Source of the DNA: an uncultured Clostridia bacterium | GTDB lineage: Bacteria; Bacillota; Clostridia; TANB77; CAG-508 | Assembly: GCA_944386645.1 (NCBI GenBank) | Contig: CALXBW010000001.1 | Location: forward strand, 8,947 to 72,946 | Direction: 5' to 3' | DNA length: 64,000 bases | Part shown: piece by piece, positions 917 through 6,490 of the stretch | Numbering within the stretch: the first letter of the stretch is position 1 | How the letters are laid out: each line of letters opens with the position of its first letter | The notes under the pieces: model-generated | Database searches by the model: none | What the model was told of the DNA's origin: nothing | Seen by the model: the letters and a program-made list of their open reading frames with translations, nothing else | Translations under genes and position numbers: made by a program

Positions 917-1684
917 ATGAATTTTTTTGATACACATGCTCATTATAATGATGAAAAGTTTGAAGAAGATAGAAATATCATAATAAGAGAAATAAAAGAA
1001 AATAATATAAAATATGTAACTGTAGTAGGATATAATATTGAATCATCTATAAAAGCAATAGAAATAGCGAATAAATATGATAATATATATGCAACAGTTG
1101 GAATTTCACCAAATGATTTAGATAGTCAAATAGATTTAGAAAAAATAGAAAGTTTAGCACAAGATAAAAAAGTTGTTGCAATAGGAGAAATTGGATTAGA
1201 CTATTATTGGAATAAAGAAAATAAAGATTTACAAAAAGATATATTTGTAAAACAGATAGAAATAGCCAATAAAATGGATTTACCTATTTCAATACACACA
1301 AGAGAAGCGGTATATGATACTTTAGAAGTATTAAAAAATAGGATAAAAGTTAAAAATAGTGGTATATTCCATTGTTGCCCATTAAATATAGAATTAATAA
1401 AAGAAGCTGTAAAATTAGGATTTTATATATCTTTTTCAGGAAATGTTACATTCAAGAATTCTAAAAATGCAAATAAATGTATAGAAGCAGTTCCAATAGA
1501 TAAATTATTAATAGAAACAGATAGTCCATATATGACACCAGAACCTTATAGAGGAAAGAGGAATAATTCTATATATGTAAAATTAGTAGCACAAAAAATA
1601 GCTGAAGTAAGAAATATGGAGCTAGAAGATATTGCTAAAATTACATTAGAGAATGCAAAAAGAGTTTATAAAATAGTAGATTAG
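917..1684 (+). CDS. TatD-family metal-dependent hydrolase/DNase
   Basis: 255 aa. N-terminal FDTHAHY motif and size typical of TatD/YabD. RBS taggaga. Confidence 0.85.
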   Translation: MNFFDTHAHYNDEKFEEDRNIIIREIKENNIKYVTVVGYNIESSIKAIEIANKYDNIYATVGISPNDLDSQIDLEKIESLAQDKKVVAIGEIGLDYYWNKENKDLQKDIFVKQIEIANKMDLPISIHTREAVYDTLEVLKNRIKVKNSGIFHCCPLNIELIKEAVKLGFYISFSGNVTFKNSKNANKCIEAVPIDKLLIETDSPYMTPEPYRGKRNNSIYVKLVAQKIAEVRNMELEDIAKITLENAKRVYKIVD

Positions 1685-1714
1685 TACATTTTATGGATAC
1701 TCTTAGTTTACTTG

Positions 1715-1833
1715 AAAAAAAATCTAATGTACTTTTTATTTGTAACTCCCAGCATCGCACAGTCTGTAAAACAGACTATAAGCTTGCTGGTTCCCACGAA
1801 TTGTTACTATATAAAAAGTACATTAGATTTTTT
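1715..1833 (+). repeat. 66-nt conserved core (1742-1807, GTAACTCCCAGC...CGAATTGTTAC) sitting at the apex of a perfect ~22-bp AT-rich inverted repeat; family R copy 1, directly 3' of tatD
   Basis: Core is >90% identical to 3225-3290 and to the reverse complement of 5463-5559. Flanking arms aaaaaatctaatgtactttttat / ataaaaagtacattagatttttt are perfectly complementary and unique to this copy. Confidence 0.6.
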
Positions 1834-1923
1834 CTACATATATCCATGTAATACATTATGTACATTAATGATATTAAAAGAATAAAATATAATGAGGTAT
1901 CAAAAAATAAAGGAAGTGATTAC

Positions 1924-2175
1924 ATGGAAATAACAGTAGCTGTTGTAATAATGGCTATTACGCTAGTTGCAGGACAGATAACTAAATTAACAAAATTAGA
2001 TAATAAATGGATACCATTGCAAAACTTAATAATAGCAATAGTTTCAAGTATTGTTTGTATAATATTTAAAGTACAAAATATGGATGTTTTAGAAACAATA
2101 ATAACATGTATATTTGGTTCGATGTCTGCAGGTGGAATATCTGATATGAAAAATATTATAAATAAAGAAAAGTAG
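1924..2175 (+). CDS. small two-TM membrane protein, holin-like
   Basis: ORF track gives 1858 as start, but the RBS aaaggaagtga precedes the ATG at 1924. Product is 84 aa with two hydrophobic segments and a charged C-terminus. Confidence 0.35.
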   Translation: MEITVAVVIMAITLVAGQITKLTKLDNKWIPLQNLIIAIVSSIVCIIFKVQNMDVLETIITCIFGSMSAGGISDMKNIINKEK

Positions 2176-2271
2176 TGTCAATCAATAATCATATTTTTTA
2201 ATTATTGGAGAAATGTAATATTTAATAATAGAGAGTATTTATATATTTTAGTAAACTTTAATAATAGGATT

Positions 2272-2296
2272 GTAGGGGAGAACAGTGTTCGCCCGT
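2272..2296. repeat. palindromic motif GTAGGGGAGAACAGTGTTCGCCCG (family P, copy 2), ~135 nt upstream of the gene at 2430
   Basis: Same core as 449-474 and 13209-13238. Confidence 0.5.
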
Positions 2297-2429
2297 TTCT
2301 GATAAAATACCTAATGACAAGGTTACACATGTTGAATATTATGTAAAATAGTGATAAAATAAAAGTATACTGATTTATATTTTTACTCAGCCACAAATGT
2401 GGCTAATAACAAAAGAAAGGGTGTCAATA

Positions 2430-3116
2430 ATGACAAACGAAAAAAACAAAAGAAGATTTATGTCAAACTACCAGGGAGAAATGTCTAAGGACGGTACTCC
2501 ACGGTACTATACTAATGAGCAGGTAGAAGAGGAAAATAAAAAGAAAGGAGGTAATGCTTATCAAAGCATACTAGTTTTAATACTAGTAGGGTTATTTATT
2601 TTTGGTTTGCCTTCTTTAATTGGAGGATATCATTTAGGGCAAAAAAATATGAAAGACAGACTGGATAAAAAAGTTGTTCAGACTGAGCAGGTTGCTCAGC
2701 AAAAAGAACAAGTTGCAGAGAAAAAGCAGCAAGATGCTGCGGACAAAGATGCTAGAAATAGCATTTTGCTGGCAACACTTGCAAAACAAGATGAGGAAAT
2801 ATTTAAGCTAAAGCAATATAAATTTATTGAAGAGGCTAATAATAATCCTCAAATTGTAATATACTTTAATGCAAAAGATTCATTAAAGTATGCAGAAAAA
2901 ATATTTAAAGATAGTGGTTTTAACACCAAGATCTTTGAACAAGATGAAGTTGCAGCATATGTAGAAAAACTACAATCCACTGCTACTTCAAATACAACTA
3001 CAAAAAAATCTGCTGCTGATATAAAATCATCAAGGTTTGCTTTGGTTGTATCATCTGGTGATTTGACTTATGTTAAATTAAACCAAAATATCAAAGAATG
3101 TTTACTTGTTGAGTAA
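2430..3116 (+). CDS. bitopic membrane protein (short cytoplasmic N-terminus, one TM, Gln/Lys-rich extracellular domain); atypical codon usage
   Basis: ORF 2397-3116; the RBS aaagggtg supports the ATG at 2430. Locally higher GC and use of CTG/CAG/GCG/CGG codons that the neighbours avoid. Confidence 0.5.
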   Translation: MTNEKNKRRFMSNYQGEMSKDGTPRYYTNEQVEEENKKKGGNAYQSILVLILVGLFIFGLPSLIGGYHLGQKNMKDRLDKKVVQTEQVAQQKEQVAEKKQQDAADKDARNSILLATLAKQDEEIFKLKQYKFIEEANNNPQIVIYFNAKDSLKYAEKIFKDSGFNTKIFEQDEVAAYVEKLQSTATSNTTTKKSAADIKSSRFALVVSSGDLTYVKLNQNIKECLLVE

Positions 3117-3198
3117 ATGTTAAAAAATAAGGAAATGGGTATTGTACCCATTTCCTTATTTTGGAGTAAATATTAATAAGTTATTCACATTTATATCA

Positions 3199-3316
3199 AG
3201 AAAAAACTAATATATTTTTTATTTGTAACTCCCAGCTTCACACAGTCTGTAAAACAGACTGTAAGCTTGCTGGTCCCCACGAATTGTTACTTCATAAAAA
3301 ATATATTAGTTTTTTC
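3199..3316 (+). repeat. family R copy 2: 66-nt core (3225-3290) at the apex of a different perfect AT-rich inverted repeat, 3' of the gene ending at 3116
   Basis: Arms gaaaaaactaatatattttttat / ataaaaaatatattagttttttc. Core differs from copy 1 at ~5 positions. Confidence 0.6.
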
Positions 3317-3440
3317 TTGATAACAAAGTAAAAAAATTATGTCTGCTTTACAAAAAATGCTAAATATAGTAAAATATTAGTGCAATTATAGAATATAACT
3401 ATATTTTATGAGCTATAAAATATGAATAGAGGTAACATCT

Positions 3441-4769
3441 ATGGCAAACTTAAAAATAAAAGAACTTACAAAAGAAAATGAGGAAAAATACTTAGATAAA
3501 GTTGCACAGCTAGAAAAAATAGTGTTAGCAGCAATGGAGAAGGATGGAAAAATAGGACAATTATTTATTACTGGAAAAGAGGACATATCTGAATATGTAC
3601 ATTCAAAACAAAACACTGTAATGATAGCAGTAGATAGTAATGAAAATGTTCAATCTGCAACATACATTACACAAGGACAAAAGGCTTTCACATATAATGA
3701 TATTACAAAATATTTTAAGTATGGGGAGGGGTATAAGAAGTATGTGAAATCTTTATATGCTAATGAAAATGAATATAAGAATGATATGCTTGAGGTATAT
3801 AAAGTAAAACTAAAAGCATATAAATATGCTAAAGGAAAAATATTAAATGAACATCCAGAGTTTTCAAATGATATTTTAAGTTTTCTAGAGCATGAATTAA
3901 AAGAAGAAAATAATCATTTTCATGAAAAAAGTATACTTAGAGAAGATTTTAATAAGTATATGTCAGAGTATATAGAGAATATGCAAGAATCAAGTATAAA
4001 GGAGAAATACGAAAAATTTTATTGGACAAATGCAGAAGATATATCAAAAGAATTTGGAAAAACAATAGATATAAATAAAATAAAAAACAGTGATATAAAA
4101 GAATATGAGAAATCTATGAAATTACAAGAGGAATATGAATATAATAAAATATTACAAAATTCTAAAATAGTAATTCATGAAAAACCAGAATTTGAAATAG
4201 AAAAATACTATAATGCAAATACACAAAATGCAGTAGAAATAGACACATATATTACAAATCCAAATGCAAGACATGCAGGATTAGCAAGAATTCTAGTATA
4301 TGAAGGAATAAAAAAACAAATGAAAAAGCATTTCAACAATGATGCTAGTAAAGAAATTTATTTATGTTCAACTCTACATAGAGAAAATTTATCTTCTAAA
4401 TATGTATCTGAATTTTTCGGCTTAAAAGATAGTCTATATGTAAAAAGAAGAGATGGAAGAGATAGAGAAGTACATATATGTAAAATAGAAAGACAAAATG
4501 TAGATGAATATTTAAACAAAATACAAGATAAACTTATTGTATTATACAATTATAATCCAGAAAATAAGAAGATTTCACAAGAAAGAAAAGAAGACATAAT
4601 AAAAGAGCAAATAGAATATGAGAAAAATGAATTAAAAAGAATACAAGGATATTCGAAGAATACAAATAATAAATACTTTGGAAATATCAAAGATACAGAA
4701 AGTAAAATTAGAAAGATAAATAGATTAAATAATATGTTAAATAAAAATAAAGAGGAGTTGGAAAGATAA
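3441..4769 (+). CDS. hypothetical protein with GNAT-acetyltransferase-like N- and central motifs (…NARHAGLARIL…) and a Lys/Glu-rich coiled-coil C-terminus
   Basis: 442 aa. RBS agaggtaa. An R-x-x-G-x-A motif resembling GNAT motif A. Stop overlaps the start of the next gene. Confidence 0.45.
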   Translation: MANLKIKELTKENEEKYLDKVAQLEKIVLAAMEKDGKIGQLFITGKEDISEYVHSKQNTVMIAVDSNENVQSATYITQGQKAFTYNDITKYFKYGEGYKKYVKSLYANENEYKNDMLEVYKVKLKAYKYAKGKILNEHPEFSNDILSFLEHELKEENNHFHEKSILREDFNKYMSEYIENMQESSIKEKYEKFYWTNAEDISKEFGKTIDINKIKNSDIKEYEKSMKLQEEYEYNKILQNSKIVIHEKPEFEIEKYYNANTQNAVEIDTYITNPNARHAGLARILVYEGIKKQMKKHFNNDASKEIYLCSTLHRENLSSKYVSEFFGLKDSLYVKRRDGRDREVHICKIERQNVDEYLNKIQDKLIVLYNYNPENKKISQERKEDIIKEQIEYEKNELKRIQGYSKNTNNKYFGNIKDTESKIRKINRLNNMLNKNKEELER

Positions 4770-5372
4770 ATGGAAGAAAAAAGCGAATACATATGGCCTA
4801 TAGAGCCAAAATATAAAGTTGCAGAACATGATAAATATGGTATAAGAAAAAATCATTATGTGTTATTTAAAGAAAGACAACATTCTGGTTTTGATATAAC
4901 AGCAGATATTGGAACAAAAGTACATCCTATATCAGAAGGAGTTGTATTATTAGCTGAGTTCGATGGTACTACAACAGAAGGATATGATGCTTTTAATGAT
5001 GGCTATGGAAATAAAGTAGAAATATTAAACGATGATGGAAGAAGAGTTGTATATGGACATTTAAGGGAGTTCTATGTAAAACCAGGAGATAGAGTAACAA
5101 AAGATACTGTAATAGGAATAACAGGAACAAGTGGAGGATCAAGAGTACCACATTTACACTTGGAAATTCGAAAAAGTAATACAGAAGAAACAGGACTTAA
5201 ATATACAATAAATCCATTAGATTTATTACCAAAAATAGATTTAAATAAATTAGATAAAGAATTTAAAGAAGAACCATATGCTAGTTTATGGAAAATCCTC
5301 GTTTCAGATAACCCATGGGGATTTACAAAAGCAGATATACCATACTCTGAGGATAAAAACATAATAAGATAA
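4770..5372 (+). CDS. M23-family (LytM/lysostaphin-like) metallopeptidase, no signal peptide
   Basis: HSGFDI (HxGxD), GYGNKVEI…YGHL and PHLHLE (HxH) motifs. Translationally coupled to the upstream gene. Confidence 0.8.
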   Translation: MEEKSEYIWPIEPKYKVAEHDKYGIRKNHYVLFKERQHSGFDITADIGTKVHPISEGVVLLAEFDGTTTEGYDAFNDGYGNKVEILNDDGRRVVYGHLREFYVKPGDRVTKDTVIGITGTSGGSRVPHLHLEIRKSNTEETGLKYTINPLDLLPKIDLNKLDKEFKEEPYASLWKILVSDNPWGFTKADIPYSEDKNIIR

Positions 5373-5437
5373 AAAGAATCTCACTATGAGATTCTTTTTA
5401 TCTTATTATGTTTTTAATTAGTTTCAAAATATTATGG

Positions 5438-5585
5438 AAAAATCAAATGTAATTTTTGTGCAGTAACAATTCGTGGGGACCAGCAAGCTTACAGTCTGTT
5501 ATAAAAAATATTTAAATTATTTAGTATTATTTTACAGACTGTGCGCTACTGGGAGTTACAAATAAAAATTCACATTTGATTTTTG
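5438..5585 (-). repeat. family R copy 3 (inverted orientation): core 5463-5559 with its central hairpin loop expanded by ~35 nt of AT-rich sequence, again inside a locus-specific inverted repeat
   Basis: Reverse complement matches the cores of copies 1 and 2. Arms aaaaatcaaatgtaattttt / aaaaattcacatttgattttt. Sits between the convergent M23 and htpX genes. Confidence 0.6.
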
Positions 5586-5596
5586 TTAAGAGACGT

Positions 5597-6490
5597 TTAT
5601 TTAATATTTCTTAAAGCTTCTATTCTAGCTTCAATTGGAGGGTGTGTTGAGAACCAATCTGTTTTTCTCTTTTTACCCTCTTTATTTTTAAATGGATTAG
5701 CAATATACATATGTGAAGTAGATTCATTTGCATATTGTAATTCATTTGTATCTTGACTTATTTTTTCAAGAGCTGATATCAATCCTTGAGGATTTCTTGT
5801 GAATTCTACAGCAGTTGCGTCTGCTAAAAATTCTCTTCTTCTTGAAATTGCAAGTTGAATTAATTTTGAAAATATAGGTGATAATACTAAAAGAACTAAT
5901 CCAATAATCATAATTATAGGATTACTATTTCTATTGTCTTCTTTTTCACCAACACCCCAAAATAATGCTCTTGAACATAAATCTGCTAACATTACTACAA
6001 GTCCTACCATAACTGTAACAACAGCTGATAAGCGTATATCATAATTTTTTATATGTGCAAGTTCATGAGCTACAACGCCTTCAAGTTCGTAATAATCTAA
6101 TTTTTCTAAAAGTCCAGTTGTAACACATATAACAGAATGTTTAGGATTTCTACCAGTTGCAAAAGCATTTTCTTGCTCAGAATCCATAACATATAGTTTT
6201 GGTTTATCTTCCATACCTGCTGCAACAATTAAAGAATCTAAAATATTAACTAGTTTTTTATCTTCTTCAGGTGTTGCTGGTCTTGCATGATTCATAGATA
6301 AAATTATTTTATCTGAATTATAGTAAGATGCCCAAGCAGAAATTATTGAAAAAGCAAGAGCAATTATGATTGAATATGGCCCAAAATCAAAATAAGTACA
6401 AATATAATATATAATTAAAGTAATTACTATTATAAATATAGATACAATTAAGCCTGTTTTCATTTTATTTTTCTTAATATCTTCAAACAT
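5597..6490 (-). CDS. htpX: zinc metalloprotease HtpX (M48 family)
   Basis: 297 aa. HELAHIKNYD (HEXXH) motif, N-terminal TM helices, C-terminal HtpX-like region. Confidence 0.85.
   Translation of the reverse strand: MFEDIKKNKMKTGLIVSIFIIVITLIIYYICTYFDFGPYSIIIALAFSIISAWASYYNSDKIILSMNHARPATPEEDKKLVNILDSLIVAAGMEDKPKLYVMDSEQENAFATGRNPKHSVICVTTGLLEKLDYYELEGVVAHELAHIKNYDIRLSAVVTVMVGLVVMLADLCSRALFWGVGEKEDNRNSNPIIMIIGLVLLVLSPIFSKLIQLAISRRREFLADATAVEFTRNPQGLISALEKISQDTNELQYANESTSHMYIANPFKNKEGKKRKTDWFSTHPPIEARIEALRNIK

Follow-up and report, generated by a model that had tools for sequence, protein, structure and literature searches.

Palindromic hairpin repeats dispersed between the genes of uncultured gut Clostridia: probably an unstable MITE- or REP-like element whose arms belong to the unit

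Several bacterial families of miniature inverted-repeat transposable elements, or MITEs, form hairpins, among them Correia in Neisseria, RUP and SPRITE in Streptococcus pneumoniae, ERIC in Enterobacteria and bcr1 in the Bacillus cereus group. Such elements are 100-200 bp long and non-coding, occur in tens of copies per genome and often lie beside gene ends; the size subclasses of ERIC arise from internal insertions. Repetitive extragenic palindromic (REP) sequences are imperfect palindromes of 20-40 nt with a conserved 5' GTAG, which are mobilised by RAYT (Y1/HUH) transposases. The attC site is likewise an imperfect palindrome, of 60-140 nt, which lies 3' of genes and combines a variable centre with unpaired conserved bases and an AAC/GTT symmetry. 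Prokaryotic MITEs have been described as intergenic, as capable of inversion (Correia) and of nesting (BOX, RUP, SPRITE) and as having terminator-like folds (PMC10969869), and the genomes of Clostridium and Bacillus hold intergenic stem-loop repeat families, namely Clop-1, Clot-1 and Bcr1 (PMC2267715). I describe here a hairpin repeat found in three copies in a 64,000-nt stretch of DNA from an uncultured Clostridia bacterium (contig CALXBW010000001.1, positions 8,947 to 72,946 of the forward strand), hereafter called the window. The three copies probably represent a hitherto undescribed family of palindromic repeats, non-coding and interspersed, in the chromosomes of low-GC gut Clostridia, and the best reading of this family, which I consider the likely one, is that of an unstable interspersed hairpin repeat of the MITE or REP kind.

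The copies present in the window and their parts are the following (coordinates are those of the window).

1717..1833, + strand: copy 1, whole hairpin; 33 nt past the tatD stop codon, in the same orientation as tatD
1717-1739 / 1811-1833: arms of copy 1, perfect, 23 bp
1742..1807, + strand: core of copy 1, 66 nt, read from the sequence, with helices backed by covariation among 31 family members
1742-1746/1803-1807, 1749-1754/1785-1790 and 1759-1767/1771-1779: helices P1, P2 and P3 of the copy 1 core
1791-1802: conserved 12-nt bulge of copy 1, TTCCCACGAATT
3195..3321, + strand: copy 2, whole hairpin; core 3225-3290; closing stem perfect, 28-29 bp; 35 nt past a separate terminator hairpin (3122-3160) of the open reading frame (ORF) 2397-3116
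5438..5584, - strand: copy 3, whole hairpin, of the long-loop subfamily; core 5463-5559; arms imperfect, with one bulge and one mismatch; 13 nt past the htpX stop codon, in the same orientation as htpX
~5501-5531: AT-rich apical loop of copy 3

A covariance model built from 31 family members finds just these three copies in the window, with scores of 131 bits for copy 1 (1712-1837), 135 bits for copy 2 (3195-3320) and 98.5 bits for copy 3 (5438-5582). The original prediction, made from the letters of the window, had placed a repeated 66-nt core at these sites. The 29-nt 3' half of that core indeed occurs three times in the 64 kb against 0 expected by chance, and outside the loop the identity of the three cores exceeds 90%. 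Across the family the element measures ~115-150 bp and has no coding capacity, the ORFs running across the copies being spurious (at most 57 aa). It consists of AT-rich terminal inverted repeats (A-tract, 8-12 variable bases, TTTTTAT) around an asymmetric core of 66-72 nt, which on one strand forms a rod made of P1 (GTAAC/GTTAC), P2 (CCAGC/GCTGG), P3 (CAGTCTG/CAGACTG) and a variable apical loop; the P1 pair and the P3 hairpin had both been correctly recognised beforehand. Each window element folds as one long rod (-41 to -52 kcal/mol, z -7 to -12 relative to shuffled sequences; -45.6 kcal/mol and z -11.3 for copy 1). The opposite strand folds equally well or better, and a T-run is present after each long stem. 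Two parts of the core are both asymmetric and invariant, GTAACTCCCA and the 12-nt bulge TCCCCNCGAATT; they confer a polarity on the element and look like a recognition surface.

The sequences flanking the core had been described as completely different from copy to copy, which does not hold: copy 1 and copy 2 share 85% identity in their left arms, and the arms of all three copies align to the consensus AAAAA-N-TAAT-N-TA-TTTTTAT, the differences between them being substitutions compensated in the partner arm. The perfection of the arms, also claimed, is confirmed for copies 1 and 2 and fails for copy 3. As had been noticed, the apical loop of copy 3 is expanded, by ~31 nt relative to copies 1 and 2, and the suggestion that this loop tolerates insertions is borne out in the family, where it falls into classes of ~4 nt (core 66 nt), ~10 nt (core 70-73 nt) and ~35 nt (core 94-99 nt) and where a nested repeat is found in P3 (see below).

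Outside the window, ~60 further copies were found in metagenome-assembled genomes (MAGs) of uncultured Clostridia and in gut metagenomes. Scanning for CTGGNNCCCACGAATTGTTAC with one genome per species returned 35 loci, 32 of them true copies, all in MAGs of uncultured Clostridia. Two MAGs are particularly rich: with one exact 3'-half pattern, at least 13 copies were counted in BRZ_HH__bin29 (hereafter bin29; 12 loci, 9 contigs) and at least 11 copies, on 11 contigs, in the mouse-gut MAG MGBC143692. A gapped pattern applied to gut metagenomes gave 100 loci, of which ~27 are true members carrying the CCCCCCGAATTGTTAC variant (CCCCCCG), the remainder being chance matches that include a conserved ABC-type gene; a metagenome scan for a CCCACG variant gave no match. 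A profile search over the loci collected to that stage, same-species strains included, yielded 86 matches. Most 8-kb loci carry a single copy, and the copies are dispersed. No family member was found in phage, plasmid and viral collections, the 13 viral matches to gapped patterns being all chance matches in coding DNA, and a 15-mer of the core had no match in a full-text literature search.

The family displays four of the features by which MITEs are recognised: small non-coding units, terminal inverted repeats, multiple dispersed copies and, as detailed below, presence/absence polymorphism. It resembles Correia, RUP, SPRITE, ERIC and bcr1 in its size, its lack of coding capacity, its hairpin-forming inverted repeats and its intergenic dispersal, and the likeness extends to loop size variants (as in ERIC), inversion in place (Correia), nesting (BOX, RUP, SPRITE) and a terminator-like fold (SPRITE). 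However, its sequence resembles none of these elements, and the hosts are here uncultured gut Clostridia. Clop-1, Clot-1 and Bcr1 are by their description of the same general class, the hosts of the present family being MAG lineages and not C. perfringens or C. tetani. With REP sequences, with the bacterial interspersed mosaic elements (BIMEs) and with the end hairpins of the IS200/IS605 insertion sequences (IS), the family shares its nature of extragenic palindromes and the maintenance of the hairpins through compensatory change. Recognition that depends on structure and differs between the strands is plausible for it as it is for these systems, an orientation bias relative to the direction of genes, and so of replication, would fit a single-strand mechanism, and a long form present in MGBC143692 is, like a BIME, a mosaic of different inverted units. 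Outright identity with REP sequences or BIMEs was rejected because the element is 115-150 nt long, has a three-stem core and lacks a conserved GTAG.

Whether the arms are part of the element can be read from strains and species related to the host of the window, which were fetched via the flanking TatD protein and are designated by L numbers, as are the other loci compared. The identity of the flanks places the window, L036-L042 and L143 in an in-group (92-100%) and L146-L150 in an outgroup (87-91%). At the site of copy 2, the full element is found in the window and in L037. Five strains (L036 and L038-L041) have the right arm only, A7-TATATTAG-T6, and L143 has the left arm only, A7-CTAATATA-T6, which is the reverse complement of the former; the outgroup L146 has neither a palindrome nor any arm-like sequence. 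Since the arms are built of an A-run, eight variable bases and a T-run, slippage between the A-runs retains the right arm and slippage between the T-runs the left one; both products are observed. At the site of copy 1, the element is present in the window and in all the same-species strains L036-L042, and a degenerate form containing a nested repeat is found in the outgroup L146-L150. In L143, a 7-bp direct repeat, GTACATT, present in the left flank and again in the right arm, exactly bounds the deletion of the element; as L143 belongs to the in-group, the phylogeny makes this absence a loss. Copy 3 has orthologues in L003 and L143-L150 and is therefore older than the species split. A further site, compared across species, is filled in L023, truly empty in L079 (TAA-AAGGAG) and reduced to a single arm in L098, L089 and L131.

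Copies at unrelated loci tell the same story about the arms. The arm variant TTAAATATA(A)C is common to four bin29 loci with unrelated flanks (L002, L009, L017 and L031), and an identical T·G mismatch is found in the arms of five bin29 copies, which indicates that both arms were copied along with the core. The arms are therefore part of the element, and the whole hairpin is the unit. This unit is gained and lost between close strains, and it collapses to a single arm by slippage between A- or T-tracts or between short direct repeats. Two more protein look-ups for further polymorphic insertions in other strains returned none, only assembly gaps at the elements. Runs of N lie at or near the elements and the variable segment next to them in the scaffolds of L150 (~12190-12290), L173 and L174 (~1370-1470); the repeats appear to break short-read assemblies.

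The element also flips in place and accepts nested repeats. At a human-gut locus, the element of L134 and its spacers are flipped within an outer 22-bp inverted repeat, the flanks being otherwise identical to those of L127, L088 and L104, which carry the opposite orientation. In L013 and L146-L150, P3 is interrupted by a different repeat of ~150 nt. This repeat, which ends in ...ATTATTCATTGCGACTGAAAGTCGCA and represents a third repeat family (for the second, see the end of this text), occupies 4594-4730 in L013 and ~10850-10985 in L146-L150, and at least its terminal part is found in the window at ~37700-37730. A long subfamily is encountered in MGBC143692 (L001, L010, L018, L019, L024, L029 and L032), in which a spacer and an outer inverted unit, TTGCCAGARGGGACGGACCTTTTTGGCAAT, itself a small hairpin, lengthen the arms; the result is a BIME-like mosaic of ~260 nt. 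A lone copy of the outer unit lies in L010 near 5750. No paired empty palindrome TTTTGGCAA/TTGCCAAAA, that is, the outer inverted repeat of the MGBC143692 form devoid of a core, was found, and isolated single matches to this short pattern elsewhere look like chance.

A number of observations weigh against a MITE- or REP-like element and must be set beside those above. Among the sites compared there is no de novo insertion for which both junctions are available at strain-level identity, and loss is the best reading for two of the three polymorphisms. No direct repeat of 4 nt or more that could represent a target-site duplication rises above the null at the stem ends, these ends being uncertain in AT-rich sequence; there is a slight excess of direct repeats of 2-3 nt, and the comparison of L023 with L079, which is one between species, is compatible with a duplication of TAA or TATAA. 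Among the loci examined, there is none in which the 5' and 3' halves of the element flank a gene, and none with a transposase with matching ends, as would be expected of an autonomous relative. In contrast to a typical MITE defined by its terminal inverted repeats, the most conserved part is the internal core and not the termini. The palindrome runs 4-10 bp past the common arm in 5 of 15 evaluable copies, compared with ~1% under the null; longer arms in some subfamilies partly explain this overrun, and palindromes may also grow by template switching. A scan with a consensus terminator model did not call the window elements and called a separate hairpin, at 5362-5408. Finally, the bias of the copies towards the sense orientation (19:6, see below) could instead indicate a role at the RNA level. 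Two loci taken for candidate autonomous elements, L013b and L020, proved to be the nested repeat and a shortened copy, respectively. There is no consistently adjacent transposase or integrase in the loci examined, and no Y1 or RAYT gene is annotated in the 8-20-kb pieces around the copies.

If the repeat is of the MITE or REP kind, its copies would spread in trans through a putative enzyme recognising the folded asymmetric core, either a transposase specific for single-stranded hairpins or one binding the terminal inverted repeats. The sense bias might then reflect a replication-strand preference of a single-strand mechanism or, equally, selection on transcripts. Once transcribed, a copy would expose a long stem between an A-run and a T-run, predicted to act as a bidirectional terminator or as a hairpin protecting 3' ends, and the elements are probably terminator-like in transcripts. 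Such a role would explain why copies are tolerated 13-35 nt behind stop codons and why the sense bias is moderate.

A quite different possibility is that the repeat is a structured non-coding RNA or a cis-acting element of 3' untranslated regions, namely a terminator, a stabiliser or a protein-binding RNA, in which the bulge is functional and the closing stem is free to vary. I regard this as improbable, mainly in view of the way in which pairing is maintained. In the alignment of the 31 unmodified short-loop members, four helices (the closing stem, P1, P2 and P3) are strongly supported by covariation. Standard pairs fill 92% of the cells as opposed to 82% in shuffled alignments, 21 pairs are changed on both sides as opposed to 14, and 115 cells are changed on both sides as opposed to 33, values matched by none of 500 shuffles; sliding the 3' partners by 1-3 columns lowers pairing to 35-48%. 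P1 is invariant across the aligned members. P2 occurs as CCAGC/GCTGG, CCAAC/GTTGG, CCACC/GGCGG and CCAAT/ATTGG, and P3 as CAGTCTG, CAGACTG, CCAGCTG, CCGTCTG, CAAGCTG and CCATCTG, the partner matching in each. Among 1237 cells, however, there are 14 G·U against 16 A·C combinations, which is not the signature of RNA pairing, where G·U is tolerated and A·C is not; an A·C mismatch on one strand is a G·U pair on the other. Switches from GC to AU have taken place with essentially no G·U intermediates, columns 44/86, 45/85 and 55/75 containing 23 AU/UA cells (24 double changes) and 0 GU cells. In the stems, which comprise arms of 20-30 bp that are homologous between copies, 665 of 694 pairs are Watson-Crick, and conservation peaks inside, in the asymmetric core, and is weakest in the outer arms. 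Strong covariation in which G·U is as rare as A·C indicates that pairing is kept as a Watson-Crick symmetry of the DNA and not as an RNA fold. As judged from this pattern of substitution, the constraint thus bears on DNA, through formation of a hairpin or cruciform or through concerted evolution of the two arms. The comparison has a more general bearing: palindromic DNA symmetry can mimic RNA covariation, and the relative frequency of G·U and A·C tells them apart.

Further points speak on either side of an RNA. In its favour, neither the unpaired 12-nt bulge nor the CUCCCA segment varies, whereas the stems covary; the folds are of high stability; and many intergenic stem-loop repeat families have been argued by Petrillo et al. 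(2008) to act as RNA (PMC2267715). The orientation of the copies points the same way: all three window copies are co-oriented with the gene just upstream, and of 25 copies located between co-directional genes 19 are sense and 6 antisense. Conversely, a perfect Watson-Crick stem of 20-30 bp is what one typically finds in a DNA palindrome. The fold of the reverse strand is at least as good, some copies are antisense or located between divergent genes, an inversion in place is observed, and strains drop the element without visible replacement. There is also no match in Rfam, which disposes of the idea of a known RNA family: across the whole window no match reaches the gathering score, and at E values up to 10 the segment 1650-5650 gives only chance matches to miRNA-type hairpins, far under the thresholds. 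The RNA interpretation put forward in the original prediction is in consequence weakly supported, pairing being indeed kept by compensatory change, without any excess of G·U, in both orientations and outside Rfam.

Gene context bears on the same issue. All 35 copies examined are intergenic; in addition to those between co-directional genes, 6 lie between convergent genes, and 3 of 34 between divergent genes. The statement that copies always lie 3' of genes is thus true of the window and does not extend to the family. Nor do the elements have the layout of an intrinsic terminator, that is, a short G+C-rich stem and a small loop followed by a U-tract, and copies 2 and 3 stand beside separate conventional terminators of the upstream genes (3122-3160 and 5354-5416). 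The latter, located directly after the M23 peptidase gene, is a perfect 30-bp AT-rich palindrome with a 3-nt loop that is called as a bidirectional terminator and yields spurious matches to miRNA-type Rfam families; copy 3, a distinct hairpin, is found 22 nt further.

The mobile repeat might also be built around a more specific device. In this proposal, which I put forward tentatively and judge unlikely, the core (P1-P3 and the 12-nt bulge) would be the folded single-stranded site of a putative hairpin-specific transposase or recombinase following an HUH/Y1 or attC-type logic, and fold-back templating, at its replication or transposition, would keep the arms perfectly palindromic and even extend them. 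Fold-back templating would explain the Watson-Crick compensation without G·U, the overrun of the palindrome into locus-specific sequence and the single-arm empty alleles. The chance that the element points to a hairpin-specific mobilisation system still to be discovered is a minority one; the repeat does not amount to a new class of system as long as no dedicated enzyme of that specificity has been found.

The hypothesis that the 66-nt core alone is mobile and inserts into the loops of pre-existing AT-rich hairpins, or that the flanking target is copied in inverted form upon insertion, is rather less likely still. It could draw on the single arm kept in empty alleles, on the extension of the palindrome into locus-specific sequence in 5 of 15 evaluable copies, on the inverted repeats nested around the element in the long form of MGBC143692 and at the L127 locus, and on another repeat of the window, at 37987-38084, which has arms of the same style around an unrelated core. 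Yet arm and hairpin are both missing from the copy 2 site of the outgroup L146, the single-arm alleles of that site occur in both orientations exactly as slippage predicts, the one at the copy 1 site is by phylogeny a loss, and identical arm variants, including the T·G mismatch, recur at unrelated loci. An outgroup site without arm, arm variants that travel and alleles produced by loss together tell against insertion into pre-existing palindromes. A flankless empty site is precisely what the original prediction had named as decisive against loop targeting, and its picture of a small, non-autonomous, multi-copy mobile element survives only when stripped of the targeting of terminator loops, because the arms travel with the core and the outgroup has no palindrome.

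An attC- or dif-type recombination site marking the boundaries of exchangeable gene cassettes is the least probable alternative, and a very remote one. Like attC, the element is an imperfect palindrome located 3' of genes, with a variable central part, conserved unpaired bases and, in GTAAC/GTTAC, an AAC...GTT symmetry, and the tatD-htpX interval, which contains the three window copies, is hypervariable between strains. But the element has its conserved part inside and its variable part outside, the opposite of attC; its copies are single and dispersed and not in arrays; the boxes RYYYAAC and GTTRRRY are not matched (TTGTAAC and GTTACTN, here GTTACT(T/G/A)C, embedded in a further 20-30-bp stem); no integrase is a consistent neighbour, and intI is absent; and strain-specific insertions do not abut the elements, with no cassette junction seen at GTAAC/GTTAC. 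Lastly, a self-cleaving ribozyme, riboswitch or T-box (no Rfam match, wrong position), a CRISPR or tandem array (dispersed copies), a DNA uptake sequence (copy number far too low) and a small ORF across the element (ORFs of 52-57 aa, not conserved) were all rejected.

The element is, then, an ordinary "junk-like" mobile repeat of bacteria, neither a new RNA gene nor a terminator-loop seeker. Its family is nevertheless a useful marker in poorly known, uncultured low-GC gut Clostridia from mouse, human and other animal samples, where it flags places prone to deletion, inversion and changes in gene content and where it could be mistaken for a small RNA or a terminator. It also offers a clean natural example of the decay of a long hairpin repeat to a single arm, in either orientation, by slippage on its own tracts.

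The interval between tatD and htpX (1684-5597) differs extensively from that of L040/L042/L172, L143, L147-149 and L041. The differences comprise an IS66 insertion, an IS91-type Y2 transposase together with a tyrosine integrase, a 560-bp deletion and, at the copy 2 site, a gene on the opposite strand for a nucleotidyltransferase of 107 aa; the nearby IS66 and IS91-type elements are insertions unrelated to the repeat. As to the genes that the copies had been said to delimit, the M23 peptidase gene is confirmed, the "GNAT" ORF (3441-4769) has no Pfam match, and the "holin-like" ORF (1924-2175) stays below threshold, with 23.8 bits for a Phage_holin_5_2 cut-off of 29.2.

The second hairpin repeat of the window, at 37987-38084, has arms AAAAATTAATATATTATTTTT / AAAAATAATACATTAATTTTT (A-run, TTAATATAT, T-run) around its unrelated 56-nt core (TCGGTCTCACATGCTTCGAGCG...). 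The covariance model matches it weakly on both strands (30 and 27 bits), its 21-nt arms are 95% complementary, and L025 has, at 1981-2100, a homologue in which the changes are compensated. Its likeness to the family described here is in architecture only, and it is not a member of the core family.

A conserved motif, GTAGGG(A/G)(C/A)GAACAGTGTTCGCCCG, occurs at 419-472 and 2242-2295, upstream of acpS and ORF 2397-3116. Within it lies the palindrome CGAACA-G-TGTTCG; the motif has no Rfam match and looks like an operator or leader, one base short of the Gram-positive LexA (Cheo) box. Further downstream, seven very large co-directional ORFs (1,532-2,511 aa) occupy 13570-53837. Since CLIPPER and SdrD_B-type domains are present in homologues of the first two from other strains, these ORFs probably encode surface adhesins; in L143, a sortase and a SpaA-domain protein are found in place of part of this region.

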